NCBI RefSeq assembly: GCF_900205865.1
Contig: NZ_LT906662.1
Span: 1,623,411 to 1,687,410 of the forward strand
DNA from: Thermoanaerobacterium sp. RBIITD
GTDB lineage: Bacteria; Bacillota; Thermoanaerobacteria; Thermoanaerobacterales; Thermoanaerobacteraceae
Length of the DNA stretch: 64,000 nucleotides
Direction of reading: 5' to 3'
Part shown: one piece after another, positions 45,876-61,131 of the stretch
Layout: each line of letters starts with the position of its first letter
Position numbering within the stretch: position 1 is the first letter of the stretch
The notes under the pieces: generated by a model
Database searches by the model: none
What the model saw: the letters and a program-made list of their open reading frames with translations, nothing else
What the model was told of the DNA's origin: nothing
Program-made: the position numbers and the translations under genes

Positions 45876-45892
45876 TAAAAAATTTCTCTGCT

Positions 45893-46157
45893 GATTATGT
45901 TACAAGTTTGTAATAAAAAATTAAGGAATTGTTAATAAATTTTATAAATTTTAATTTTATAATAAAAGGTAAGATATGGGAGGCAAGAATATAAAATGAA
46001 GCATAATATGCGGAAGTGATAAAAATTATTTTTATATTGCGGAATATTTTTAGAATAATTTAGCTTTTATATATATAGAAGGGGAAACAAAAGACGGAGG
46101 TGAAGAAAAAGATTATTCAATGTTCCCAAAAACATATGAGGGAGGGAGATATCTTTT
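45893..46157 (+). repeat. leader module copy A (part 1 joined to part 2; sigma cassette absent; uORF start degenerate)
   Basis: Shares TTATGTTACAAGTTTGTAATAAAAAATTAAGGAAT...GGGAGGCAAGAATATAAAATGAAGCATAATATGCGGAAGTGATAAAAAT...GGAATATTTTTAGAATAATTTAGCTTTTATATA with the other copies. Confidence 0.7.
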
Positions 46158-46838
46158 ATGAAATATCAAAAAAAATTAACAGCAGTATTACTTATAACCA
46201 TATTTTTACTGAGTGTAGTGATTACGGGCTTTACTTCAATATCGAAAGCAAGCACAAAAGAATCACTTGGTGTGAGTGATGCAACAAATTTTGATGATCC
46301 TATTACAGTAATTTCAGGCATGGTTCAGGCGATTAATGAACAGGATCCTTATGAGTATATGACCTATTTTACCAATTCTAATCGCACAGCTATGACACAG
46401 TTTCTTTCAAGTAATAAATCAGAGTCATTCTTTAAAGAGAAGCAAGCAAAGTTGATTCAAATTAAGGAGCTCCCAAAGGACATAGATATAGAAGCAGCAG
46501 GCATATCATCTGGAGAAAACTTAAATTTGGATGATACACGTATTTATTATGCTGAAATTAACTTTAAAGTGGATAAAGAAGATAAATGGCTATATAATGG
46601 TACAAACTATCGTGTTATTGTTGTTACAAAAGAAGATGGAAACTGGAAAATAGTCAGGCTATCAGTTCCATCTATAGAATACTTAAAAGATACTGGCAAT
46701 GGATTTAATTCAAAGGATGAAAATATTGCTGTTAAAATTGAAAGTACTCTTGAGAGAAAAGGACAAGTAATGAATATGAAGGGTGCAGTTATTGATAATA
46801 TTGCTGCAACAGAAGAACAGTTAAAAAATGAAAAATAG
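46158..46838 (+). CDS. lipoprotein; truncated paralog of 58729..59997
   Basis: Signal peptide/lipobox-like N-terminus. It is about 85% identical to the first 225 aa of the 58729 gene and is followed after the stop by a remnant of that gene's C-terminal domain at 46846-46925. Confidence 0.5.
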   Translation: MKYQKKLTAVLLITIFLLSVVITGFTSISKASTKESLGVSDATNFDDPITVISGMVQAINEQDPYEYMTYFTNSNRTAMTQFLSSNKSESFFKEKQAKLIQIKELPKDIDIEAAGISSGENLNLDDTRIYYAEINFKVDKEDKWLYNGTNYRVIVVTKEDGNWKIVRLSVPSIEYLKDTGNGFNSKDENIAVKIESTLERKGQVMNMKGAVIDNIAATEEQLKNEK

Positions 46839-47193
46839 TCCTAGCAAAAACAGCAGTTCAAGCTGGAGCTATAGCTGTAAAAATGTATGGCTGGTACCAT
46901 GTGAATCATCCAAAATGGAACTTTCGTATAATTAGGGGATTATTTGAATGGTATCTGTTGTAAAAATATCAGAAGTAGTAGCCTCTTACAGTTAATATTC
47001 CTAAATTATTATGACATTTCTAAAATGTAAAAAGATAACATTTAATAAAAAATTTATTATTATATAAATTTTAACAGTTATTACATAAATAAAAAAGAAG
47101 GTGATATATTAAAAACCTACTTTAAATTACATGATATTTTATTTAAATTGGAGGAAAAGGAAAATAATTAATTCAAATAAGGAGAGATCTGAA

Positions 47194-47813: not shown

Positions 47814-48341
47814 ATGAATAGTGGAACAATAACTACGAAGAAAATAAGTGGTGTTCCAGATTTGACTTGGTATAAAGGCTGTGCTCCTACATCAGCAGCT
47901 AACTTGATTTATTATTGGGATGCTCATGGATATCCTAACCTTGTTATTAATGAAACTACTAATCAAGTAATAGAAAAATTGGCAATGAATATGGGAACAG
48001 ATAGTAATGGTTCTACTAATGTTTTATTTATTATGTCTGGTACTATTCAATATATAAAATCAAAAGGATATACAAATTTTGATGGTTATGATTTAAATCC
48101 TCCTAGCTATTATGATATAAGGAATGAAATAAATAATTCAAGACCCCTATTATTATCGGTAATAGGACATCCAACTTATGAAAATCATACAATGGCATGT
48201 GTTGGATATGAATACGTAACAGAACTTGGAGAAATAACAGAAGAATATGTAATAGTACATGATACATGGAGTGAAACTCCTACAGATGTGTATATTGCAT
48301 TTGATGGGACTTTCAAATATGCACATATATTTATTCCATAA
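47814..48341 (+). CDS. C39-like papain-fold peptidase domain protein (possibly the 3' part of a disrupted gene)
   Basis: Catalytic-type Cys (WYKGCAPTSAANLIYYW) and His (VIVHDTW). No signal peptide is present on this ORF. Confidence 0.45.
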   Translation: MNSGTITTKKISGVPDLTWYKGCAPTSAANLIYYWDAHGYPNLVINETTNQVIEKLAMNMGTDSNGSTNVLFIMSGTIQYIKSKGYTNFDGYDLNPPSYYDIRNEINNSRPLLLSVIGHPTYENHTMACVGYEYVTELGEITEEYVIVHDTWSETPTDVYIAFDGTFKYAHIFIP

Positions 48342-48354
48342 AAAGGTGATATTT

Positions 48355-48690
48355 ATGATATCAAAAAAATGGATAATGACCATGCTACTTATTTTGGCTC
48401 TCACAGGATGTTCAAATCTAAAAAAACAAGGAGATGTGGTAGGTGGAATATCTGATAATGAAGCTTTGAAGGTAGCTAAAGAAAAAGCGGAAATTACTAA
48501 AGTAAAATCAGAAGAGCTTAAAAATTTAGAAGTTGATCTCGACAAATTTTTTGATGATCCAAAACTTATGGAAAAATCTCCTTGCCCCGTTTACTGGATA
48601 ATAAAAGGTGTTGATAAAGAAGGGAAATCCTTAACTGTATATGTAAATTATAAAAAACCCAGCATTTATTATATTAAAAATGAAAGATAG
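48355..48690 (+). CDS. small lipoprotein
   Basis: Lipobox LILALTGCSN and an RBS (AAAGGTGA). It is about 95% identical to the product of 58106..58441. Confidence 0.55.
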   Translation: MISKKWIMTMLLILALTGCSNLKKQGDVVGGISDNEALKVAKEKAEITKVKSEELKNLEVDLDKFFDDPKLMEKSPCPVYWIIKGVDKEGKSLTVYVNYKKPSIYYIKNER

Positions 48691-48707: not shown

Positions 48708-48733
48708 TCATGGCATTTGCCATGCTTTTTTTA
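48708..48733 (+). terminator. rho-independent terminator
   Basis: CATGGCATTTGCCATG followed by TTTTTTT; the same element occurs at 58458-58483. Confidence 0.6.
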
Positions 48734-48826
48734 TGTTACAAGATTGTAATAGAAAATTAAGGAATAATTAATAAAATTTATAATTTTTAATTTTATAATA
48801 GAGGTGAGGTATGGGAGGTTAAGAGT
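48731..48826 (+). repeat. leader module copy B, part 1
   Basis: TTATGTTACAAGATTGTAATAGAAAATTAAGGAATAATTAATAAAATTTATAATTTTTAATTTTATAATAGAGGTGAGGTATGGGAGGTTAAGAG, immediately before the ATG of 48827. Confidence 0.7.
48737..48750. promoter_or_regulatory. palindrome TTACAAGATTGTAA, putative operator
   Basis: Also present at 45899-45912 (as TTACAAGTTTGTAA), 52951-52964 and 58487-58500. Confidence 0.4.
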
Positions 48827-49228
48827 ATGGGAGAGAGCGATGTAGAATTTGCATTTATTAAGTTTATTGAAAAATCTATTAATTATGAAGCAGTAAAAGC
48901 CATAAAAAAATATAATGACATTAAAAAGAAAGAACTTTTAACATTAGAGTTACCAGATTACAATGGCAATATTGAAAATGATGGGAAAATTATTGACAGT
49001 ACGGTATACGATAATGTGTTAATTGAAAATGAAATAATAGATAGATTAATGATTTCAAAATGCAAGGAACTGTTGGAAGCGGAAGAATTTAATGTTGTAA
49101 TGCTAAATATAATGCAAGATATACCACAAAAAGAGGTAGCTAAAATGTTAAATAAATCACAATCATCCATAAGCAAGATTAAGAAAAAAGCCCTTAAGAA
49201 AATAAGAAAGTTTATGGAGGGTTCTTGA
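48827..49228 (+). CDS. ECF-type sigma-70 C-terminal fragment (regions 2.3/2.4 to 4.2)
   Basis: EFAFIKFIEKSINYEAVKAIKKYNDIKKKEL aligns to region 2.3-2.4 (compare SigW FSTWLYRIATNLTIDRIRKKK). The C-terminal VVMLNIMQDIPQKEVAKMLNKSQSSISKIKKKALKKIRK is a region 4.2 HTH. Confidence 0.6.
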   Translation: MGESDVEFAFIKFIEKSINYEAVKAIKKYNDIKKKELLTLELPDYNGNIENDGKIIDSTVYDNVLIENEIIDRLMISKCKELLEAEEFNVVMLNIMQDIPQKEVAKMLNKSQSSISKIKKKALKKIRKFMEGS

Positions 49229-49232
49229 AAGT

Positions 49233-49433
49233 ATGTGTAAAAATAAAAGCCTTTTTGAAATTATTTTAAAGGCTAAAGAAGGTGATAAAGATGCTATGCA
49301 AGAGATAATATTGCGATTTCAGCCTCTTATAAAGAAAAACATGAGAAATGTTGATATGGACATAAAAGATGATATAAGTCAGGATATTGTTGAGGTAATA
49401 ATAAAAGCAATCAAAAAATTTGATATAAAATGA
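49233..49433 (+). CDS. ECF-type sigma-70 N-terminal fragment (regions 2.1-2.2 only)
   Basis: LKAKEGDKDAMQEIILRFQPLI...DDISQDIVEVIIKAIKKFDIK aligns to the SigW-type regions 2.1-2.2 (QVKKGDQDAFADIV...AEDIAQEAFIRAYVNIDSFDIN). It has its own RBS (GGAGGG, 10 nt), and its start lies 4 nt after the previous stop. Confidence 0.6.
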   Translation: MCKNKSLFEIILKAKEGDKDAMQEIILRFQPLIKKNMRNVDMDIKDDISQDIVEVIIKAIKKFDIK

Positions 49434-49589
49434 AGCATAACATTCGGAGATGATAAAAATAATTTTTATGATGTGGAATATTTTTAGAAAAAGTTAGCTT
49501 TTATATAAGTAGAAGGAGAAATACGGAAAATGGAGGTGAAAAAAGATTATGAAATATTCCCCTTAAATATGAGGGAGGATTGGATTTAA
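49434..49589 (+). repeat. leader module copy B, part 2
   Basis: CATAACATTCGGAGATGATAAAAATAATTTTTATGATGTGGAATATTTTTAGAAAAAGTTAGCTTTTATATAAGTAGAAGGAGAAATACGGAAAATGGAGGTGAAAAAAGATTATGAAATATTCCCC... Confidence 0.7.
49530..49589 (+). CDS. conserved leader uORF (MEVKKDYEIFPLNMREDWI); its stop abuts the ATG of 49590
   Basis: An RBS (AAGGAGAAA) lies upstream. Equivalent uORFs occur at 54934..54978 and 58670..58732. Confidence 0.35.
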   Translation: MEVKKDYEIFPLNMREDWI

Positions 49590-50327
49590 ATGAAAAGGTT
49601 AGTATCGCTCATTTTATGCTTATCTTTAGCTTTATCTGTGACAATCGCTTATGCAGATCTTTCTACTAATGAACAATCAATAGGTGAAGTATCAGCTGAG
49701 TCAAAAAAACTTTCTGATCAAAAAATAGTTGAAACGGCAAAGCGGTTAGAAGTGTTAAACAAAAAAGTTTCTAATGGACAAGTAAATCCTATGAGTGATC
49801 CACAAATACCACCAAGCAAAATATTAAGTACTTCCGGATATATTGCACAACCTGATAATAGTACATGTGGACCTACTTCTGCTCATAATCTGCTCTTAAG
49901 CTGGGGTAAAAATATATCTATAGATACACTGAAGAAAGATTTGGGATATAATGGTCAAACTCCTTTTGGAGATGCATGGAAAACGACGCTTAATAATTAT
50001 ACAAATTCAACTTATTATGTAGTTACTTGGAGCCCTAGTCAGACAACAATTTGGAATGCTTTCGTTGGGGACACAATTGATGGACACCCATTTATATTAG
50101 ATACACATATGTCGTCTGAAAATGGTTATCTTGAAGGTTATTCTGGATCAACATGGTGGCATTATGTAACAGGAATTGGATATAGTGGCTATAATTTAAA
50201 TTCAGACAATAGTAAATATGGAATATACTTTGATCCGTATGATGGACGTGTGGGTACTTTTGGCCAGCATTCTTTGGAACTGCCCAAATGGGTAAAATTA
50301 GTATCAGAAAGAGGAATAGTTTGGTGA
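49590..50327 (+). CDS. exported C39-like papain-fold cysteine peptidase
   Basis: Signal peptide (LILCLSLALSVTIAYA), a catalytic-type Cys (DNSTCGPTSAHNLL) and a His (WWHYVTGIGY). Confidence 0.6.
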   Translation: MKRLVSLILCLSLALSVTIAYADLSTNEQSIGEVSAESKKLSDQKIVETAKRLEVLNKKVSNGQVNPMSDPQIPPSKILSTSGYIAQPDNSTCGPTSAHNLLLSWGKNISIDTLKKDLGYNGQTPFGDAWKTTLNNYTNSTYYVVTWSPSQTTIWNAFVGDTIDGHPFILDTHMSSENGYLEGYSGSTWWHYVTGIGYSGYNLNSDNSKYGIYFDPYDGRVGTFGQHSLELPKWVKLVSERGIVW

Positions 50328-50408
50328 TTTCATGGTATTCCTTAAGTGTTTTACTTAAGGAATACCATAATCTATATAGATAAAAGTCACTTTGTCTGGG
50401 AGGCTATT

Positions 50409-51488
50409 ATGAATAAAGTGAAACTATGTTTATTAATCATCGTAATCTTAATAATTGGTGGCTGTAGTATTAATAGTACAAGTACAGACTTAAGCAATGA
50501 GAATATAATTATTGATAAAACAAATGGTAATATACTTGATGAGTTAGAAGCTAAAAAAACCTCATCGATTGAAAATGCACATCCAATAGCTGTGCTTGAT
50601 GATGGCAGAAAAGTGTTTTTGCAGGTTAATCCTGAAGTAGACAACAGTATTTTTGTCACTTCAATCGATGGCTCAATAGTGCTTAAAATTAATGCTGAAA
50701 TTTCTAAAAATATTTATGATGCAAAAGTCATGGGGAATTGGATCGTGTATGTTGAATCCAGCAACGATATGACAAAAAGCGATTGGGCTTTGTATGCCAA
50801 AAATATAGATGACAATCGTCGCATAGAAATTGATAAGGGAAATGTTGTAAATGCAAAAGTAAAAACGCCTACTTTGTTAGGAGCGTTGATATCTGCATCT
50901 AACGACAAAATTGTTTGGACAGCTTTTGAAAAAGATGAGAAATCTGTTAATGCAATTGTCAAATTATACGATATTGAAAACAATACTTATAAAATCGTTG
51001 ATAAATTAAATGTTGAAGACGGAGAATTTGGGCAGCCAGGGTTGGATGGGGATTGGCTTGTATATGATATTGGAAAAATCGATATGAAAGCACTGGCGAG
51101 AAATGGGAAATTGGTCCTTGTAAATCTTAAGAATAACGAGAAAAGAATATTAGATGAAGGATTAAGAGTTAGCGGTGCATCAATTAAATATCCATATGTA
51201 GTATGGAATTCAGGCGATTCTATTCTAAAATTATACAATATAAAGACAAAAGAAGAAAAAACTATTGTAAATTGGGGTATGACAGGCGTTTGGAATAGCT
51301 CACTTAATGATAAGTTTATTTCATGGAATACAAACGGTGATGGTTTATACATTTACTCTATAGAAAGAGGAGAGATATTGAAGTTAAAAGATTCAGGTAT
51401 TACAAGCGGTGGTAATATTTCAGGCAATATACTGTGGTGGTACGTCAAAGGAGAAAAGTGCAAATCAGAGTGGATTACTTTAGATTGA
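50409..51488 (+). CDS. lipoprotein with beta-propeller-like repeats
   Basis: Lipobox IIGGCSI, with repeated W/Y-rich strands (WIVYVES, KIVWTAF, WLVYDIG, YVVWNSGD). An RBS (GGGAGG) lies before MNKVKL. Confidence 0.5.
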   Translation: MNKVKLCLLIIVILIIGGCSINSTSTDLSNENIIIDKTNGNILDELEAKKTSSIENAHPIAVLDDGRKVFLQVNPEVDNSIFVTSIDGSIVLKINAEISKNIYDAKVMGNWIVYVESSNDMTKSDWALYAKNIDDNRRIEIDKGNVVNAKVKTPTLLGALISASNDKIVWTAFEKDEKSVNAIVKLYDIENNTYKIVDKLNVEDGEFGQPGLDGDWLVYDIGKIDMKALARNGKLVLVNLKNNEKRILDEGLRVSGASIKYPYVVWNSGDSILKLYNIKTKEEKTIVNWGMTGVWNSSLNDKFISWNTNGDGLYIYSIERGEILKLKDSGITSGGNISGNILWWYVKGEKCKSEWITLD

Positions 51489-51501
51489 ATGAAATTACTG
51501 A

Positions 51502-51912
51502 ATGCTTTTTAATCATATTGGAGTGAGATTTATGATAAAAATTACTAGTACATGTAAATATATACCTTATAAAATTATGTTTGCGCTTTTTATAATTGTA
51601 ATGCTATTGTCACATCTATCAAATATAGCATCAGCAAATGAAAGTTTTGTTATTTTAGACATCAGCAAAGGAAGTATTGTCATAACTTCTACAGGTTATT
51701 CACAAAATAGCAGCAAAGAAATTCCATATACTATACGAGAATACAGTGGACTTCCGGAGTAGGACACGCTATGGTTATTAAAGGTTATGATACCAGCACG
51801 AATTATGTTATTTATAACGATCCTTGGGATGGATACGGGCATGGCGCAACTTACTCATATTATGTAAGTAACAGTAGCTGGTACTGGACAGATTCTCTAT
51901 TTTGGGAATAGT
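51502..51912 (+). pseudogene. C39-like peptidase remnant (frameshifted)
   Basis: An 86-aa ORF with a signal-like N-terminus is followed, in a different frame, by GHAMVIKGYDTSTNYVIYNDPWDGYGHGATYSYY. This is the conserved C-terminal His region of C39-like peptidases. Confidence 0.4.
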
Positions 51913-51934
51913 ATGAATGAGGAGGTGAATTATT

Positions 51935-52798
51935 TTGAAAAAGGTTCTTACTTTTGTTGTGATTGCTATATTGATATTAATATCAACTTTTCCGGCTTTT
52001 GCAGCTACTCCAATAAATACTCTGGTTCAACAACAATTAGATCTAGCTAAAGAAAAAGATCAGGTAGAACGTGCAATTAGCGATAGCCAGTCAAATCCTA
52101 AAAAATTTTTATTCGATAACAAACATGAGCTGGGACGTAAAGAGTTAATGGATGTAAGTAATCCTGACGATTTAATATACGGGAAAGCATATAAAGTGTA
52201 TATTGCTAATAAAGAAGTTATTCAAGATCTAATAGAAGGGAAAAATATTTCTAATGTTCTGTTAAATGCACCTTATGAGTGGGAAGTGCCTGTAAAATTT
52301 AATAATAAAAGTGTAGCGTCAATTACCGTATCTTTTTTGGACAATAGATGGAATGTTGGTGAAATTGGCGGCTATCTTTCGCCTAATTCTATTGATTTTG
52401 TAAGCAATCCTGATGATATAACTTCATATCTTGATAACAATAATTTAAAAGAAGCAAAAACATTTATTCATTTCAGAATACCTTCGTTGCATTCCGATTT
52501 TCTTTATATTGAAGCAAATAGTGGAGAATATTTTATCCCTGTTATTCACGGCGAAGGTAAAAGTGAGCTTTATGGTCTTAAAGACAAAAAAATATATACA
52601 AAAGACGAGATAATTTCCGCTGTTGGTCATACTCTTAAAGCTGGTTTGAAAGATACGGGAATGACAACAGGCCGCCCGTCGGTTAATGGGAAATATCTTG
52701 GCAATCAAGTATACTATTTAATTGTATTGACAATTTTTATTGCCTTTATAACAATTTTTCACTTTATTAGATTGAAACGAAAATACAGTTATAAGTAA
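51935..52798 (+). CDS. exported protein with C-terminal membrane anchor (hypothetical)
   Basis: Signal peptide (VIAILILISTFPAFAATP) and a C-terminal TM helix followed by a basic tail (LKRKYSYK). It has a TTG start with an RBS (GAGGAGGTG). Confidence 0.5.
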   Translation: MKKVLTFVVIAILILISTFPAFAATPINTLVQQQLDLAKEKDQVERAISDSQSNPKKFLFDNKHELGRKELMDVSNPDDLIYGKAYKVYIANKEVIQDLIEGKNISNVLLNAPYEWEVPVKFNNKSVASITVSFLDNRWNVGEIGGYLSPNSIDFVSNPDDITSYLDNNNLKEAKTFIHFRIPSLHSDFLYIEANSGEYFIPVIHGEGKSELYGLKDKKIYTKDEIISAVGHTLKAGLKDTGMTTGRPSVNGKYLGNQVYYLIVLTIFIAFITIFHFIRLKRKYSYK

Positions 52799-52944
52799 AT
52801 AAGCGAATCTAAGGTGGAATATTAAAATTCTATGTTAGACACCCATCAAAAATAGTTGGTGTCTTTTATTTTTTATTTTGCATAGGCAATCAGGATGTAA
52901 GTGTTTATCTGATAAGTTAAGGGACCAATAAAATTTTTCTGCCA

Positions 52945-53000
52945 ATTATGTTACAAGATTGTAATAAAAAATTAAGGAATAATTAATAAAATTTATGATT
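52945..53000 (+). repeat. leader module copy C, part 1, interrupted by an IS
   Basis: ATTATGTTACAAGATTGTAATAAAAAATTAAGGAATAATTAATAAAATTTATGATT, then the IS begins. Confidence 0.65.
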
Positions 53001-54782
53001 TGATTCAAGTGTCATAAGAAGCATTTTTTTAAGCTGCTAATGATAACTTTGCTTGATTTTTACCTGATTTTGTAAGAATAAATTTGATTTTGATATTTTT
53101 ATACAAAGTTGCAGCCATCTCCGCTGCCATTTTCAGTATTTTTTTTGCATTTATGGCTCCTATTTTGAATGAAAACCAGATTTTTGAGCGCACTAATCCC
53201 CTTACAGGTATCACATCTACATAATATTTGCGCCTTAGTATTGATGGAATACCCTCCACTCCATTTCTTATCTTTTGAAGTACACTGTATTCTTCTGTTG
53301 ACATCTTTTTCAAATAGCTTGCTCTTTGTATTGTTTTTGCTGTTATCAGTACATATGCCGATTTCTTTTGTAGCTTCGCTCCACATTTTTCTCTTAGTGG
53401 ACAATGTTCACATGTTTTTTTATTGAAGGATGCTCTATATAATCCTGTTTTTTCATAGTATCTTGTTTTGTATGGTTTTTCTCCTCTTGGGCATTTGATT
53501 ATTTCATGGGTCGTTTCATCTAATTCAAATTCGCTTTGTATTTCATCTGGCAATTTCCCTATAAGAGCTGTTGTTATTAGTTCGATATTGTTTTTATCTG
53601 CAAGTTCTATGTTTTCAATGCTGCTGTAAGCTCCATCTGCTATTATTGTTATTTCTTTTTCTTGTTTCCCTAGCTTTTCTATTGTTTCTTTGCAAAAGCT
53701 GCTATCGCTGTGTGTGTTTACATCATAGTCATAGCTGGTTATTATGGAGCCTTTTTCGTCTATTGTTTCTACTATGTTAGCTACATAGCCTTTATGGTCT
53801 TTTCCTGCTTTTTTGCGATATGTTGCATCTGGGTCGCTTGGGTTTTGAAGACTATCAGGGCTTATTTTTTCTTTTTCTACTGGTACTATCTTGCCTTCTT
53901 CTGTTATTTCTGTTTGTTCTTTTAGTACACGCTGTAATAGCTGATATTCTGGTAATTCAGCGTATGCTTCTCCTAATTCTTTTATTAGTGTATAGGCATC
54001 TTCAATTATTTCTTGAAGTCTTTTTGTTATTTCTTCGTTTTTTCTATGATAGATTGTTTTGTTTCTGTCGTCTTCATCTAGGTAGTGTTCCATGTTTTTG
54101 AGGTGTTGATATTCTCCTGTTTTGTATACTGCCTTGACCATATTTGCTACGCATGTGTATAGTATTTCTAATCTGGACATTTTTTTGCAACTGGATGATA
54201 CCATAATGCTGTCCATTCTTTTTACTGATGGATTTATATTAAAGTATTTTACAAATACGTTTGCCATGGCTTCCATTTCTTCATGAAGAAGGTCTCTTCC
54301 TGTTTCTAGATTGTAAAGATATAGCCTTTCACGAAAACGGCTAAAAGTCCTATCACTGAAAGGTTGACTTTTGAAGCTTGTAGTGTGAAGGGCGTATTGG
54401 AAACGGACATCACATAGGATGCTTGCTAATAGTTCGTCATCTGTGAGATTAAACATTTCTTTTAGTATTAGGGCTCCAATTATTGCGTTTACAGGACTGT
54501 TTGGACGAGAAGCGGGATTGTCACTGTACAATACGGAAAAGCGTTTCTCATTGATTGCTGGAAATATGATTTCAGCAAAGCCTTTTGCCCATGAATTTAA
54601 AACAAACGTTTTTGTTCTTTCATCCAAGTTTAAGAATCTATCATCAATTGTGATTTGTTGATATTCGTTTGGTTTGAATGCCATGGCTATGTATCGCTCC
54701 TTCTATTTCCTTTTGTTTGTATTTCTATTTTACCATATTTTTAGTTTATCATGAAGGAAAAATACTTTTGACACCTTAATCA
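53001..54782 (-). mobile_element. IS1182-family (IS5/IS1182) insertion sequence, about 1.78 kb, with imperfect terminal inverted repeats of about 25 bp and a TGATT direct-repeat flank
   Basis: Left end TGATTCAAGTGTCATAAGAAGCATTTTT and the reverse complement of the right end, TGATTAAGGTGTCAAAAGTATTTTT. TGATT is present at 52996-53000 and at 54783-54787. Confidence 0.7.
53029..54684 (-). CDS. IS1182-family transposase
   Basis: 551 aa with the N-terminal conserved region NPASRPNSPVNAIIGALILKEMFNLTDDEL. A DDE region and a C-terminal Cys-rich segment (CPRGEK...CEHCPLREKC) follow. Confidence 0.85.
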   Translation of the reverse strand: MAFKPNEYQQITIDDRFLNLDERTKTFVLNSWAKGFAEIIFPAINEKRFSVLYSDNPASRPNSPVNAIIGALILKEMFNLTDDELLASILCDVRFQYALHTTSFKSQPFSDRTFSRFRERLYLYNLETGRDLLHEEMEAMANVFVKYFNINPSVKRMDSIMVSSSCKKMSRLEILYTCVANMVKAVYKTGEYQHLKNMEHYLDEDDRNKTIYHRKNEEITKRLQEIIEDAYTLIKELGEAYAELPEYQLLQRVLKEQTEITEEGKIVPVEKEKISPDSLQNPSDPDATYRKKAGKDHKGYVANIVETIDEKGSIITSYDYDVNTHSDSSFCKETIEKLGKQEKEITIIADGAYSSIENIELADKNNIELITTALIGKLPDEIQSEFELDETTHEIIKCPRGEKPYKTRYYEKTGLYRASFNKKTCEHCPLREKCGAKLQKKSAYVLITAKTIQRASYLKKMSTEEYSVLQKIRNGVEGIPSILRRKYYVDVIPVRGLVRSKIWFSFKIGAINAKKILKMAAEMAATLYKNIKIKFILTKSGKNQAKLSLAA

Positions 54783-54995
54783 TGATTTTTAATTTTATAA
54801 TATTAGGTGAGGCAGGTATGTATAAAGTATAAAATGAAGCATAACATTCGTAAATGATAAAAATAATTTTTATGATGTGGAATATTTTTAGAAAAAATTA
54901 GCTTTTATATAAGTAGAAGGGGAAATACGGAAAATGGAGGTGAGGAAAGAGATTATGAAATATTCCCCTAAAATATGAGAGAGGGAAATAAGATT
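54783..54995 (+). repeat. leader module copy C, part 2 (resumes after the IS)
   Basis: ATGATTTTTAATTTTATAATATTAGGTGAGGCAGGTATGTATAAAGTATAAAATGAAGCATAACATTCGTAAATGATAAAAAT... The uORF MEVRKEIMKYSPKI lies at 54934..54978. Confidence 0.65.
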
Positions 54996-56872: not shown

Positions 56873-57979
56873 GTGATTAAATCGTTTAAAACTTTATTAG
56901 CTGTTGTATTTTTATTACTTATGTCTGTTGTATTCTCTGGCTGTTCTGACACAGTGAAAAATAATACTGAAGTGCCATTTGTTGTCTTAAATAATGATGA
57001 TGGAAACTTTAAGGCAGATATATATTACTGGAATATAAAAACTAATAAAATAAAAGAAACAAATGAAAATTTATATAAGATTCCACAAAATATAATAACA
57101 AATAAAGAATTATATACGATATTCCCTATGGCTTGGGATGAACAGAATCATGCAGTTTTGCCTTCTTATTTAGAAGTATCAGATAAATTCAAAAACTTTG
57201 TTAAAAAAGCGGATTTTTATTTTCAACCAAAGACGATATGGGGGCAAGACGTAAAGTTGGTAAAAAGCGATGAAGAAAATAGATATAAGTTAACATTAAT
57301 AGATGGCGGTAAGACTGAGGAGAAAGAAATAACAATTCCTCTTCATACTTTTAAAGGTGAAGATGGTAAAGGGTATGAAGCAACAAAATGCGGAACAGTA
57401 ACATCGGTAGTTAAGACAAGTTATGGTGCAGCAATGCTCTATCCTTGCTTCACATTAGGTGGCGGAAAATTATTCATTGTAAAGTATGATAACGCATCAG
57501 AAAGTATCAAATGGCAAGAAGTTGGACCTATTAAAGGTATAGAGTTATCACCTAGCTTTCCGCCATTGGCTAATCATACAGCTACTATCGGAGATAATTT
57601 TATCATAAGAACGCAGACTAATCCTATAGAAGTGTATACCGAAAAAGTAGGTTATAAGATTATAAATAACATATATGATCTTCGGAAGAAATACGCACCT
57701 GAAACATTAAATAGTGAATTTCCTGAATATATAGATATTTTAGGAAGCTATAATGATATTTTGTTTTTAAGTATACCAGTGCATAAAAATGAAGGGACAG
57801 AATTGTATATATTTGCTGTGAAGGATGATAAACTTATAGGGATTATGCACAGAACGATAAATGATATTGAAATAATTGATGCGGCAGGAAATGTTGCATC
57901 AAAATATAATATGCCTAAAGCGAAAACTTTAATTGGCGAAAATGATGTCTATTTTCCAAATGTGAACGGCATGGATTGA
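56873..57979 (+). CDS. lipoprotein (hypothetical)
   Basis: Lipobox VVFSGCSD with an RBS (GGGGAGG). Confidence 0.5.
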   Translation: MIKSFKTLLAVVFLLLMSVVFSGCSDTVKNNTEVPFVVLNNDDGNFKADIYYWNIKTNKIKETNENLYKIPQNIITNKELYTIFPMAWDEQNHAVLPSYLEVSDKFKNFVKKADFYFQPKTIWGQDVKLVKSDEENRYKLTLIDGGKTEEKEITIPLHTFKGEDGKGYEATKCGTVTSVVKTSYGAAMLYPCFTLGGGKLFIVKYDNASESIKWQEVGPIKGIELSPSFPPLANHTATIGDNFIIRTQTNPIEVYTEKVGYKIINNIYDLRKKYAPETLNSEFPEYIDILGSYNDILFLSIPVHKNEGTELYIFAVKDDKLIGIMHRTINDIEIIDAAGNVASKYNMPKAKTLIGENDVYFPNVNGMD

Positions 57980-58105
57980 TTAATAGATTAAATGTTGAAG
58001 ACGGAGAATTCGGACAGCCAGGGTTGGATGGGGATTGGATTGTATATGATATTGGGAATACTTTCATATACACACATATATTTATTCCATAAAAAGGTGA
58101 TATTT

Positions 58106-58441
58106 ATGATATCAAAAAAATGGATAATGACAATGCTACTTATTTTGGCTCTCGCAGGATGTTCAAATCTAGAAAAACAAGGAGATGTGGTTGGTGGAAT
58201 ATCTGATAATGAAGCTTTGAAAGTGGCTAAAGAAAAAGCAAAAATTACTAAAGTAGAATCAAAAGAGCTTAAAAATTTAGAAGTTGATCTGGACAAATTT
58301 TTTGATGATCCAAAACTTATGGGAAAATCTCCTTGCCCCGTTTATTGGATAATAAAAGGTGTTGATAAAGAAGGGAAATCCTTAACTGTATATGTGAATT
58401 ATAAAAAATCCAGCATTTATTATGTTAAAAATGAAAGATAG
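58106..58441 (+). CDS. small lipoprotein, paralog of 48355..48690
   Basis: Lipobox LILALAGCSN. The whole 58020-58570 block duplicates 48290-48830. Confidence 0.55.
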   Translation: MISKKWIMTMLLILALAGCSNLEKQGDVVGGISDNEALKVAKEKAKITKVESKELKNLEVDLDKFFDDPKLMGKSPCPVYWIIKGVDKEGKSLTVYVNYKKSSIYYVKNER

Positions 58442-58457
58442 TCTAATTGTTGAATTT

Positions 58458-58483
58458 GTCATGGCATTTGCCATGCTTTTTTT
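58458..58483 (+). terminator. rho-independent terminator (duplicate of 48708-48733)
   Basis: CATGGCATTTGCCATG followed by TTTTTTT. Confidence 0.6.
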
Positions 58484-58728
58484 ATGTTACAAGATTGTAA
58501 TAGAAAATTAAGGAATAATTAATAAAATTTATAATTTTTAATTTTATAATAGAGGTGAGGTATGGGAGGTTAAGAGCATAATATGCAAAATGATAAAAAT
58601 AATTTTTATGATGTGGAATATTTTTAGAATAATTTAGCTTTTATATAAGTAGAAGGGGCAATACAGAAGATGGAGGTGAAAAAAGATTATGAAATATTCC
58701 CCAAAAATATTAAGGAGGGAGATCTTTT
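58484..58728 (+). repeat. leader module copy D (part 1 joined to part 2, no sigma cassette)
   Basis: Part 1 is identical to copy B up to GGGAGGTTAAGAG and is then joined directly to CATAATATGCAAAATGATAAAAAT... The uORF MEVKKDYEIFPKNIKEGDLL lies at 58670..58732 and overlaps the ATG of 58729. Confidence 0.7.
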
Positions 58729-59997
58729 ATGAAACATCTAATAAGATTAACAGCAGTACTGCTTATAACAACATTTTTAATAGGTATAGTGATTACAGGA
58801 TTTACTTCAATACCGAAAGCAAGCGCAAAAGAATCGGTTAGTCTGAGCAATATAACAAATTTTGATGACCCTATTGCAGTAATTAAAGGGATGATTCAAG
58901 CAATTAACGATCAGGATCCTTATGAGTATATGAACTATTTTACCGATTCTAATCGCACAGCCATGACACAATTTCTTTCAACTAATAAGTCAGAATCATT
59001 CTTTAAAGAGAAAGAGGCTAAGTTGATTCAAATTAAAGAGCTTCCAAAGGAAGTAGGTGTAGTAGCTGCAGGTATTTCATCTGGAGAAAACTTAAATTTG
59101 GATGATACACGTGTTTTTTATGCCGAAATTAACTTTAAAGTGGATAGAGAAGATAAATGGCTATATAATGGTACAAACCATCGTGTTATTGTTGTCACAA
59201 AAGAAGATGGAAGCTGGAAAATAGTAAGGCTATCAGTCCCATCTATAGAATACTTAAAAGATACTGGCAATGGATTTAATTCAGATGACGAAAATATTGC
59301 TGCTAAAATCGAAAGTACTCTTGATAAAAAAGGACAAATAATGAATATGAAAGGTGCGGTTATTGATAATATTGCTGCAAGTGAAAAACAGCTAAAAGAT
59401 GAGAAATTAAATCCTAGAGCTATTGAACCTGAAATAGGCATAGATAGCACAGCAGTTGATGAACATACGAGGCCTTCTAATATCAGGGTTTACATGACAA
59501 ACTCAGTAAATATAAATCATTATGGTTCCGGAACTCACCTTGTTGATTTTGGAGATTATGTGTATAATGTACTGCCAAATGAATGGGGCGACTGGTACAA
59601 TACGGCTAAAACAGCAGTTCAAGCAGGAGCTATAGCTGTAAAAATGTATGGTTGGTACCATGTGTATCATCCAAAATGGAATTTTAGCCCTTACTATGCT
59701 GACGTACAAGATAATATAAATGACCAAGTATATAAATACAATTCAGCGACAACTAATTTTAATAGTGCAGTTAATGATGTTGGAGGGATTGGTGTCGATA
59801 TACTCAGTGGATCGGCTTATGTTCTATTTGAAGTGCATTACGTAGCAGGAACTGAAGGACCAGGCGGGCAATATAGTGGTACGATGTGGCAATATGGAAC
59901 GTTATATTGGGCAAAACAAGGTAAAGGCTATACTTACATGTGCCATTATTATTGGGACAGATCGTCAACTCAGCCAATACATTTCTTTTACTATTAG
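58729..59997 (+). CDS. lipoprotein with C-terminal SpoIID/LytB-like domain (tentative)
   Basis: Lipobox/signal ITGFTSIPKASA. The C-terminal VLPNEWGDWYNTAKTAVQAGAIAVKMYGWY resembles the SpoIID ...ALKAQAVAARTYA region. Confidence 0.45.
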   Translation: MKHLIRLTAVLLITTFLIGIVITGFTSIPKASAKESVSLSNITNFDDPIAVIKGMIQAINDQDPYEYMNYFTDSNRTAMTQFLSTNKSESFFKEKEAKLIQIKELPKEVGVVAAGISSGENLNLDDTRVFYAEINFKVDREDKWLYNGTNHRVIVVTKEDGSWKIVRLSVPSIEYLKDTGNGFNSDDENIAAKIESTLDKKGQIMNMKGAVIDNIAASEKQLKDEKLNPRAIEPEIGIDSTAVDEHTRPSNIRVYMTNSVNINHYGSGTHLVDFGDYVYNVLPNEWGDWYNTAKTAVQAGAIAVKMYGWYHVYHPKWNFSPYYADVQDNINDQVYKYNSATTNFNSAVNDVGGIGVDILSGSAYVLFEVHYVAGTEGPGGQYSGTMWQYGTLYWAKQGKGYTYMCHYYWDRSSTQPIHFFYY

Positions 59998-60066
59998 AGA
60001 TTATTTAATTGAGTAGGAATAATTTATATTTTCCTACTCAATTTTAAAGTTTAGGAGGTATTGTCA

Positions 60067-61131
60067 ATGCGAATAAAAAAATTAACGATATTGGTTTTAT
60101 TTTTACTTTTACTTTTTTTATATGGATGCCGGTATCATATTTTTGATAAAAATCAAGTCAAAGTAATCAAATATTCTGTTCCGAATTTCGGATATTTCTG
60201 TCCGATTTTTTTTCAAGGGAAAGAGGTTGTAGCACAGCAAGGACAAGATACACCAAGGGATTTAACAAATATGACTTTGTATTCTAGTAAAGATTTTAAG
60301 AAATACAATAAAATAGCTTTATTTGAAGGTCATTTTGGACAATTTTATGTTTCACCGTATAATTCAAAAGAAATATTTTTTATGTCTACTGAAGGGAAAG
60401 AAGGCACAGAGCAAATTGTTTTCAAAAGCAACGATGGCGGAAAAAGTTGGGGGCAAGTTTATTATAATTCAGATGATAGTATGATGCTAGCTGATATGAC
60501 ATTTAGTCCTTCCAATAGAAACGAAATATTTTTAGTTAAAAATGATAAAGAACATGGCATTGAAATAATAGAAAGCCATGATTCAGGGATTCATTGGAGC
60601 AAAGCAAATTCTACAAAAGAGATTATTATGTCTACTCATCTTGTGATTGATCCTAATAATTCTAAGCATTTTTTAGTTTCTGCTTCAAATGGTCTTTGGG
60701 AGAGCATTGATGGAGGTGTTTCGTGGAAACAAATAACTACCTCAGAGTCTTTGACAGCTATTTTTGCTCTTTCCAAAAATGATAATGTGTACTTCACAAC
60801 TATGGAATCCATTAATGAAGGATGTATATATGAATTAAATAATGGAAAAATAAAAAAGATTAGCATCCCAAACATGGGAGAGTTAATTTACAACGTTGGA
60901 ATTGCTTATCAAAGCAGTACAGGAAAAGTTTATGTTATAGTAATACGGCAAAATGAAAGCAATTCTATGTATGATACTACTTTATATTACATTAAAAATG
61001 ATTCTTTTAACAAAGTAACTAATATTAAGAGTAAATATAGTACTCTTCCAAATCTGATTTTTGATGCTACAAACTCGAACGTTATATATTTTTACAGCTA
61101 TAAAAATATATACAAAGTTGTCTTATCTTGA
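60067..61131 (+). CDS. lipoprotein with BNR/Asp-box repeats (Ycf48/sialidase-like beta-propeller)
   Basis: Lipobox LFLYGCRY, with BNR-like motifs SNDGGKSW, SHDSGIHW and SIDGGVSW. An RBS (GGAGGT) lies 8 nt before the ATG. Confidence 0.55.
   Translation: MRIKKLTILVLFLLLLFLYGCRYHIFDKNQVKVIKYSVPNFGYFCPIFFQGKEVVAQQGQDTPRDLTNMTLYSSKDFKKYNKIALFEGHFGQFYVSPYNSKEIFFMSTEGKEGTEQIVFKSNDGGKSWGQVYYNSDDSMMLADMTFSPSNRNEIFLVKNDKEHGIEIIESHDSGIHWSKANSTKEIIMSTHLVIDPNNSKHFLVSASNGLWESIDGGVSWKQITTSESLTAIFALSKNDNVYFTTMESINEGCIYELNNGKIKKISIPNMGELIYNVGIAYQSSTGKVYVIVIRQNESNSMYDTTLYYIKNDSFNKVTNIKSKYSTLPNLIFDATNSNVIYFYSYKNIYKVVLS

Follow-up and report, generated by a model that had tools for sequence, protein, structure and literature searches.

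A compact chromosomal gene pair in Thermoanaerobacterium as a probable two-subunit sigma factor

In Bacillus subtilis, SigO (sigma4) and RsoA (sigma2), encoded by the yvrI-yvrHa operon, form a two-subunit sigma factor, as related in passages of PMC8103513 and PMC7826278, both citing MacLellan 2009. The operon name implies that the sigma4 gene comes first. According to passages of PMC8103513 (also PMC7826278, PMC10028694 and PMC12370630), SigO-RsoA, formerly YvrI-YvrHa, transcribes oxdC-yvrL, yvrJ and its own yvrI-yvrHa operon. In Tn916 the genes orf7 ('a sigma factor') and orf8 ('HTH protein') stand in the same order and activate their own promoter, Porf7 (PMC5812530, PMC12229494); Orf8 is described as a possible helix-turn-helix (HTH) regulator (PMC12229494). 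In phage T4 the sigma2-like and sigma4-like functions are on separate polypeptides, gp55 and gp33, which act with the host core RNA polymerase (RNAP) (PMC7408454; bioRxiv 10.1101/2024.09.12.612765). Here we describe two adjacent open reading frames (ORFs), ORF1 and ORF2, in a 64,000-nt stretch of the chromosome of Thermoanaerobacterium sp. RBIITD (contig NZ_LT906662.1, positions 1,623,411 to 1,687,410), called the window in what follows; all coordinates are window positions. Together the two ORFs probably encode a single alternative sigma factor, in two subunits, of the SigO-RsoA / Tn916 Orf7-Orf8 type, with their own leader as its likely promoter. Among natural two-chain sigma factors only SigO-RsoA has, to our knowledge, been studied biochemically. 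An initial annotation, made from the sequence alone, knew of no described permuted split sigma factor of the extracytoplasmic function (ECF) type, a statement superseded by the published SigO-RsoA and Tn916 orf7-orf8 pairs, which have the same layout.

ORF1 (48827..49228, + strand, 133 aa) contains sigma regions 2.3/2.4, a linker and a region 4.2 HTH, and resembles the SigO / Tn916 Orf7 subunit; it is 100% identical to a protein recorded at NCBI for this strain. ORF2 (49233..49433, + strand, 66 aa) carries a Pfam HTH_16 domain corresponding to sigma regions 2.1-2.2, and resembles the RsoA / Tn916 Orf8 subunit. The TGA stop codon of ORF1 (49226-49228) and the ATG of ORF2 (49233) are separated by 4 nt. 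Each ORF has its own ribosome-binding site (RBS): GGGAGG at 48813-48818, 8 nt ahead of the ORF1 ATG, and GGAGGG at 49216..49221 (+ strand), inside the 3′ end of ORF1 and 11 nt ahead of the ORF2 ATG. The ORFs, spacing and RBSs are thus as the initial annotation had them.

Residues 83-128 of ORF1 match Pfam Sigma70_r4 (PF04545; E 1.7e-8, 34.2 bits against a cutoff of 24.1), and residues 8-64 of ORF2 match the full length of Pfam HTH_16 (PF12645, model positions 1-65; E 2.4e-15, 56.8 bits against a cutoff of 22). The sigma70-ECF superfamily model TIGR02937 (165 positions, curated cutoff 42.9 bits) is shared out between the two: ORF2 aligns with positions 1-48 (12.9 bits) and ORF1 with positions 51-164 (E 5.7e-11, 42.3 bits, slightly under the cutoff). 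The two coverages do not overlap, and the model breaks at position ~48-51, inside sigma2 and between regions 2.2 and 2.3. When ORF2 and ORF1 are joined in silico in that order, the model matches positions 1-164 as one stretch with 54.2 bits, above its cutoff. The earlier proposals on the domains of the two ORFs, on a cut that separates region 2.2 from region 2.3 and on the swapped order of the halves are borne out. The best NCBIfam match of ORF2 is RsoA, 'sigma-O factor regulator' (NF041489; E 1.7e-5, 24.7 bits), and ORF2 also aligns with the N-terminal region-2 segment of more than 10 sigma-family models, including SigH, SigY, ShbA, SigI and SigF/G; its region-2 similarity rests on these full-length NCBIfam sigma models and on the fold. 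No specific ECF or group-5 family model fits the pair or the fusion, all such models scoring far under their cutoffs. A sigma4-bearing subunit without regions 2.1-2.2 and a small region-2-like partner therefore lie side by side on one strand, as in the two-subunit layout, and in every informative locus of a relative the two genes are likewise neighbours.

An AlphaFold2 model of the virtual fusion, built from a 50-sequence alignment of database matches, has a mean predicted local distance difference test (pLDDT) score of 85. It comprises a helical N-terminal domain made of ORF2 and the first ~35-40 residues of ORF1 (residues 1-100 at pLDDT 80-94), which a disordered linker connects to a sigma4 domain at pLDDT 96-98. 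In a Foldseek search of the PDB, the top 50 of 50 matches to this model are sigma factors, including SigH, SigB, sigmaE, AlgU, WhiG and SigW, with E values down to 4.6e-6. A fusion model from a single sequence superimposes on the isolated region 2 of sigmaE with a template modelling (TM) score of 0.67-0.72. The modelling shows compatibility of ORF2 plus ORF1 with the sigma fold, as distinct from assembly of the chains. A natural unsplit relative, which the initial annotation had suggested seeking, was also found: P0054, from an Oscillospiraceae metagenome-assembled genome (MAG), is a single-chain sigma factor of 176 aa that matches TIGR02937 positions 6-165 and aligns colinearly and without gaps across the junction. 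Its second-best model is BotR.

Related loci were scanned in one genome per species. The pair was found in six other Thermoanaerobacterium assemblies (T. thermosulfurigenes, T. butyriciformans, T. saccharolyticum, sp. PSU-2, sp. CMT5567-10 and a MAG), at 88-92% identity for ORF1 and 95-97% for ORF2. In the five of these that are intact (L003-L007) the proteins have 133 and 66 aa and the 4-nt spacer, AAGT, is identical; in the sixth, a draft T. saccharolyticum contig (L008), the pair is present with a gap in ORF1. Thermoanaerobacter MAGs have relatives 45% (ORF1) and 55% (ORF2) identical, one an intact copy of 133 and 66 aa with a 4-nt gap (L009, MAG Bu09), the other with its ORF1 relative truncated to 119 aa and a gap of 56 nt (L010). 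Two uncultured Clostridia MAGs have relatives at 28-37% identity, whose ORFs overlap or stand 2 nt apart. An ORF2 relative lies downstream on the same strand in all eight further scan loci that have an intact or nearly intact ORF1 relative and downstream sequence, and it is still there in the two loci with a damaged ORF1 relative (L008 and L010). Pairwise dN/dS (the ratio of nonsynonymous to synonymous substitution rates) is ~0.2-0.35 for ORF1 and ~0.05-0.2 for ORF2; by these estimates both ORFs, intact in at least seven independent assemblies of two genera, are under purifying selection. With ORF1 as the query, exhaustive searching by HMMER gave 66 relatives, mostly of 130-155 aa and matched over their full length. 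Two much longer proteins, P0015 (647 aa) and P0030 (1253 aa), match ORF1 in seven and five separate stretches, respectively, and may carry tandem sigma4-like repeats.

The pair lies in a genomic island bounded by an SNF2-helicase gene on one side and by a LiaF-like gene and then argC on the other. Four modules of this island (~45.9-61.1 kb) open with one shared leader of ~240 nt, which heads the pair's own module (module B) and three further operons. Two repeat families in it, D4 and D1, are contiguous at ~45.9, 54.8 and 58.5 kb; at the pair, D4 (48731-48844) and D1 (49450-49578) have exactly the two ORFs in between. This confirms that the pair stands precisely between two halves of a leader that is uninterrupted elsewhere. 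We call these halves Block 1 and Block 2. Only module B has the two ORFs between them, and the arrangement is the same in other species, with the pair ahead of different downstream modules.

Block 1 (48715..48826, + strand) is a conserved putative promoter region directly upstream of ORF1, and its start overlaps the intrinsic terminator of the upstream operon (48709..48733, + strand; stem CATGGC-ATTT-GCCATG and a T-run). Its elements are TGTTACAAGATTGTAATA (48734-48751), TTAATAAA (48768-48775), TATAAT (48794-48799) and the RBS of ORF1, so that the order reads TGTTACAAGNTTGTAATA, TTAATAAA, 18 nt, TATAAT, GGGAGG. Block 1 is near-invariant in nine copies from three Thermoanaerobacterium genomes and free of indels against Thermoanaerobacter over a core of ~70 nt. 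The motif TGTTACAAGNTTGTAATA occurs four times in the window against ~0.7 expected (3 mismatches), each time followed by the conserved leader. A + strand operon comes directly after in three of the four copies, and an insertion sequence (IS) intervenes in the fourth (module D). Both here and in orthologs the motif lies ~75 nt upstream of ORF1. Block 1 also holds a perfect 6-N2-6 palindrome, TTACAA-GA-TTGTAA (equally a TGTWAY repeat at 11-bp spacing), which may be an extra regulator site.

The conserved core of Block 2 (49434..49589, + strand) is GGAATATTTTTAGAAAAAGTTAGCTTTTATATAAGTAGAAGG (49475-49516), which includes a TATATA box (49502-49507); the block contains GGAATATTTTTAGAAAAATTTAGCTTTTATATAAGTAGAAGG and ends in the RBS GGAGGTGA (49532-49539), after which come a mini-ORF, MKYSP (49549-49566), and a second RBS (49571-49578). 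The 22 copies of Block 2 in the two genera comprise 21 distinct sequences. Between Thermoanaerobacterium and Thermoanaerobacter both blocks are conserved, and better so than the two sigma proteins; each block has a TATAAT-like box ~30 nt upstream of a strong RBS. A scan of the leader for the sigma-A consensus gave 32 sites against 27 expected. Since Rfam gave no relevant match to the leader at E<=1 and RNA folding of Block 2 found neither a significant (z = -0.35) nor a conserved or covarying structure, Block 2 is probably conserved at the DNA level; a riboswitch or attenuator was considered and dropped on the same results. In several modules the mini-ORF ATGAAATATTCCCCTTAA (MKYSP) follows the Block 2 RBS and is itself followed by a second RBS ahead of the first gene; in other modules no mini-ORF intervenes between the Block 2 RBS and the first gene. 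The mini-ORF may encode a leader peptide or be what is left of a gene start.

The leaders that have no sigma genes keep traces of them. In module A (45879..46157, + strand) Blocks 1 and 2 are contiguous, and the junction retains the last 11 nt of ORF2 (ATATAAAATGA). In module D the left part of Block 1 (52930..53000, + strand) has been severed by the IS insertion; the right part with Block 2 (54783..54974, + strand) heads an Amidase_6/CHAP protein gene and has the junction AGTATAAAATGA, running from the ORF1 start region to the ORF2 end. These two share the junction type AGTAT|AAAATGA, in which the ORF1 start region and the last ORF2 codons and stop are kept, and which fits a deletion between TAT microhomologies. 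Module E (58466..58728, + strand), which heads DUF4829/SpoIID-like and BNR-propeller genes, has a second type, GGTTAAGAG|CATAAT, also seen in several copies in other species. With their two junction types, the sigma-less leaders look as if a unit of promoter, sigma genes and leader had been duplicated and the sigma genes then deleted in at least two independent events; they do not look like empty cassette sites. Of the gain/loss cassette suggested initially, the junctions would thus fit loss from duplicated modules, and not insertion of a mobile cassette.

In the mechanism that we favour, ORF1 and ORF2 would be co-transcribed and translated from their adjacent RBSs. ORF2 would provide sigma regions 2.1-2.2, and with them the contact to the RNAP core, and ORF1 would provide the region 2.3/2.4 helix, the flexible linker and the region 4.2 HTH that reads the -35 element. 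The sigma2 domain would be rebuilt from the two chains on core RNAP, and the holoenzyme, on some inducing signal, would most likely transcribe from the leader ahead of its own genes, which would amount to positive autoregulation. The same leader also heads the three paralogous operons of the island, whose products are lipoproteins and secreted proteins that carry domains resembling peptidoglycan hydrolases or peptidases. The shared leader suggests, though it does not prove, such a small autoregulated regulon. The two-chain sigma factor was one of several options offered in the initial annotation, and the fusion match, the fold and the conservation support it.

Several results weigh against this reading. 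Pfam Sigma70_r2 (PF04542) gives no match at E<=1 to ORF2 or to the ORF2-ORF1 fusion; of the two Pfam checks proposed at the outset, the one on region 4 therefore agrees, with Sigma70_r4 found on ORF1, and the one on region 2, taken literally, speaks against the assignment, which we consider outweighed by the other evidence. The covalent join of ORF2 to ORF1 in the AlphaFold2 model is artificial. The score of ORF2 is far below the RsoA equivalog cutoff of 100 bits (NF041489). SigO-RsoA is accompanied by the membrane-protein genes yvrJ and rsiO (yvrL), but tblastn with three YvrJ proteins found nothing significant in the window, and no zf-HC2 or anti-sigma-like match was found among the island proteins scanned against Pfam. 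A comparison by eye revealed no -35 element, or motif with shared spacing, common to Blocks 1 and 2, and the cognate promoter could lie in either block. Finally, a repressor or activator that binds as a dimer could also use the palindrome in Block 1.

The last point belongs to the alternative that survives best, in which ORF1 alone is a small HTH factor (sigma-4 / LuxR-GerE-like) bound as a dimer to TTACAA-N2-TTGTAA, and ORF2 is an accessory modulator and no sigma fragment. Besides the perfect palindrome, the weak matches of ORF1 relatives to GerE/LuxR-type HTH models and the Pfam name of the ORF2 family, 'helix-turn-helix', would agree with it. It leaves aside, however, that the N-terminal 40 aa of ORF1 align with region 2.3/2.4 and ORF2 with regions 2.1-2.2 of many sigma models, that their coverage is exactly complementary and the fusion exceeds the sigma-family cutoff, that an unsplit sigma relative exists and that the fusion fold matches sigma factors only; SigO-RsoA provides the biochemical precedent. 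We regard a lone HTH factor as unlikely.

The contents of the island bear on a second alternative. Downstream of the pair in the same module, genes and gene fragments extend over 49590..52798 (+ strand), among them those for a secreted Peptidase_C39_2 protein (49590-50327), a 359-aa lipoprotein (50409-51488) and a 287-aa secreted protein (51935-52798), all on the + strand. The products behind the leaders carry signal peptides (judged by eye) or lipoboxes and include Peptidase_C39_2, Amidase_6/CHAP, DUF4829 plus SpoIID-like and BNR beta-propeller proteins, as well as several without a family match. In the Thermoanaerobacter MAG Bu09 (L009, 4360-6705) the 45-55%-identical pair is followed, behind the same Block 2, by 89% and 81% protein homologs of the module-E genes (window 58729-61131), so that the association between the pair and these genes holds across genera. 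From the domain content of the products, they may serve to remodel the cell envelope or to antagonize other cells. A mobile-element regulatory module like Tn916 orf7-orf8, controlling excision or transfer rather than a chromosomal regulon, could be suspected from the same two-gene layout near an integrase in a Tn916-like element on an Enterococcus faecium plasmid, from the IS within the island and from island content that differs between species. No integrase, excisionase, relaxase or conjugation genes were found in the island from the SNF2 helicase to the LiaF-like gene and argC, however, nor integrase or conjugation genes in its flanks, and the locus (SNF2 helicase gene to argC) is syntenic in at least three species, which makes such a module very improbable.

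A third set of readings would make the split a decaying gene or the scar of a rearrangement, an error of sequencing or assembly, or a substrate from which DNA rearrangement restores one gene. The initial annotation had named a scar, a sequencing error and a restoring recombination, and the swapped order, the truncated paralogs and the IS in the island might superficially suggest something of the kind. The comparative data refute these readings: the 133- and 66-aa ORFs with their 4-nt gap recur in five further Thermoanaerobacterium assemblies and one Thermoanaerobacter locus (and the pair is present in L008), dN/dS is well under 1, direct or inverted repeats around the pair are only short AT-rich chance matches, the same layout occurs in distant lineages, and gene order varies among relatives.

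Some further observations concern the dynamics of the island. The IS in Block 1 of module D (~1.78 kb, 53001-54782) is flanked by TGATT, has the terminal inverted repeats TGATTCAAGTGTCA and TGACACCTTAATCA and encodes a DDE transposase (DDE_Tnp_1_6/DUF772; 53029-54684, minus strand); it parts the TGTTACAAG motif (52949) from the remaining leader and the Amidase_6/CHAP operon. Module A begins with a gene (46158-46924) that is paralogous to the 422-aa DUF4829/SpoIID-like gene at 58729-59997 but truncated; the two are 82% identical over residues 1-226, and a 27-aa remainder (residues 293-319) follows in another frame. Parts of 50409-51488 and 57992-58441 recur at 57970-58056, 51010-51072 and 48310-48687, a mosaic that suggests frequent recombination between modules. 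In L009, the 89% and 81% identity of the module-E homologs, set against 45% and 55% for the sigma subunits, suggests either recent exchange of target genes between genera or contamination of the MAG.

Pairs of this kind occur more widely and in both orders. A tblastn search of plasmids with ORF2 gave four matches, each inside an annotated HTH-domain gene, and a sigma-70-family gene lies just upstream on the same strand in all three of the plasmid records inspected (that of the fourth match, H2, was not opened). The order is sigma - YvrJ - HTH on Paenibacillus and Virgibacillus plasmids and sigma (151 aa) - HTH (73 aa), with an integrase further along, in the Tn916-like element on the E. faecium plasmid. 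The sigma4 proteins of the Tn916-like element (TIGR02937 positions 48-164) and of the SigO-like/YvrJ loci (50-163) begin at the model position of ORF1, and share with it the N-terminal signature F..Y....L..EAI.L..K...ELL.LN.P. The colinear order, HTH_16 first and sigma4 second, is found at P0016, P0018 and P0021, and the order sigma4 - HTH_16 - YvrJ at P0029. Gene order among relatives varies freely and the 'permuted' order is one of two common operon arrangements of the partner genes, so that no special explanation of a permutation is needed. When phage sequences were searched with ORF2, most matches were in annotated genes for phage sigma factors, apparently of full length, and not in split pairs.

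The colinear order is also that of remote relatives at L017 (GCA_023395855.1), L020/L021 and L023; the L017 pair has a prophage-like setting, beside genes for a holin, a glucosaminidase and an M78/HTH_3 repressor. The gene for P0054 (L019, the Oscillospiraceae MAG) adjoins an agr-like cluster of AgrB, a small ORF, a HATPase_c_5 kinase and a LytTR response regulator, which recalls quorum-controlled TcdR-type sigma factors. In one metagenomic locus (L024/L025, 2501-5405) the order sigma4 (134 aa) - HTH_16 (87 aa) - YvrJ is followed by a second short sigma4-only gene and then by a complete ECF sigma factor with a zf-HC2 anti-sigma, so that split and unsplit sigma factors are clustered.

The sequences suggest that the break between regions 2.2 and 2.3 is shared by the pair, the Tn916-like Orf7 protein and the YvrJ-locus (SigO-like) sigma proteins, with gene order free and unsplit relatives in existence. 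A wider generalization is possible, and we put it forward tentatively: PF12645 HTH_16 proteins in general may be, not helix-turn-helix regulators, but detached regions 2.1-2.2 of sigma factors cut within sigma2, and HTH_16 plus short-sigma4 pairs (Tn916 Orf7/Orf8, SigO/RsoA and the 133+66 aa pair) may all belong to a single class of sigma factors with an intradomain split, widespread in Firmicutes and found in either gene order, which in Thermoanaerobacterium would run a self-amplifying regulon growing by duplication of the promoter-sigma-leader unit and subsequent deletion of sigma from the copies. Current understanding is not overturned by the pair, which adds a compact, thermophilic and chromosomal example to a small set of natural two-chain sigma factors. 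It may assist annotation, as NCBI labels ORF1 'sigma factor-like HTH DNA-binding protein' and the plasmid HTH_16 genes 'helix-turn-helix domain-containing protein', and it may be of use to those who employ split sigma factors as AND gates. The repeated leader provides a testable candidate regulon of secreted cell-wall-hydrolase-like proteins.

Compared with the known systems, the pair agrees with SigO-RsoA in dividing the sigma function between a larger sigma4 protein and a region-2-like protein of ~70-80 aa, in its co-operonic genes with the sigma4 gene first, in the RsoA model as the best NCBIfam match of ORF2, and in the alignment of SigO-like YvrJ-locus proteins with ORF1. In passages of PMC8103513 and PMC10028694, SigO-RsoA drives its own operon and a few neighbouring operons. 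Unlike SigO-like proteins, ORF1 is without an N-terminal extension of ~55-60 aa, the neighbours encode secreted hydrolase-like proteins and not oxalate decarboxylase, and the leader is duplicated across four operons. Because the RsoA score is far under its cutoff, a YvrJ homolog was not found and the N-terminal extension is missing, the pair is, as judged by these comparisons, not an ortholog of SigO-RsoA. Tn916 Orf7-Orf8, a sigma-like protein of ~140-150 aa (Sigma70_r4; TIGR02937 from ~48) followed by an HTH_16 protein of ~70 aa, is closest in size to the 133+66 aa pair, with ~20% identity between ORF1 and Tn916-type proteins and 33-35% for ORF2. Orf7-Orf8, however, is part of a conjugative transposon, with read-through into xis-int and repression by Orf9, whereas the pair here is chromosomal and syntenic, without mobility genes and not next to xis/int, and belongs to no Tn916-like element. 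T4 gp55/gp33 likewise has its sigma2-like and sigma4-like functions on separate chains but no detectable sequence relationship to the pair; it splits between domains and needs the sliding clamp gp45, whereas here the cut is inside sigma2 (2.2/2.3) and both halves are recognisably sigma-70. With single-chain ECF and TcdR-BotR-type sigma factors the pair shares sigma2 and sigma4 without region 3, and its fusion passes TIGR02937, but it has two chains and no assignment to a specific ECF or group-5 model. The pair is best classed with the two-subunit sigma factors already described, as a new and compact representative; the type of gene is not itself new.

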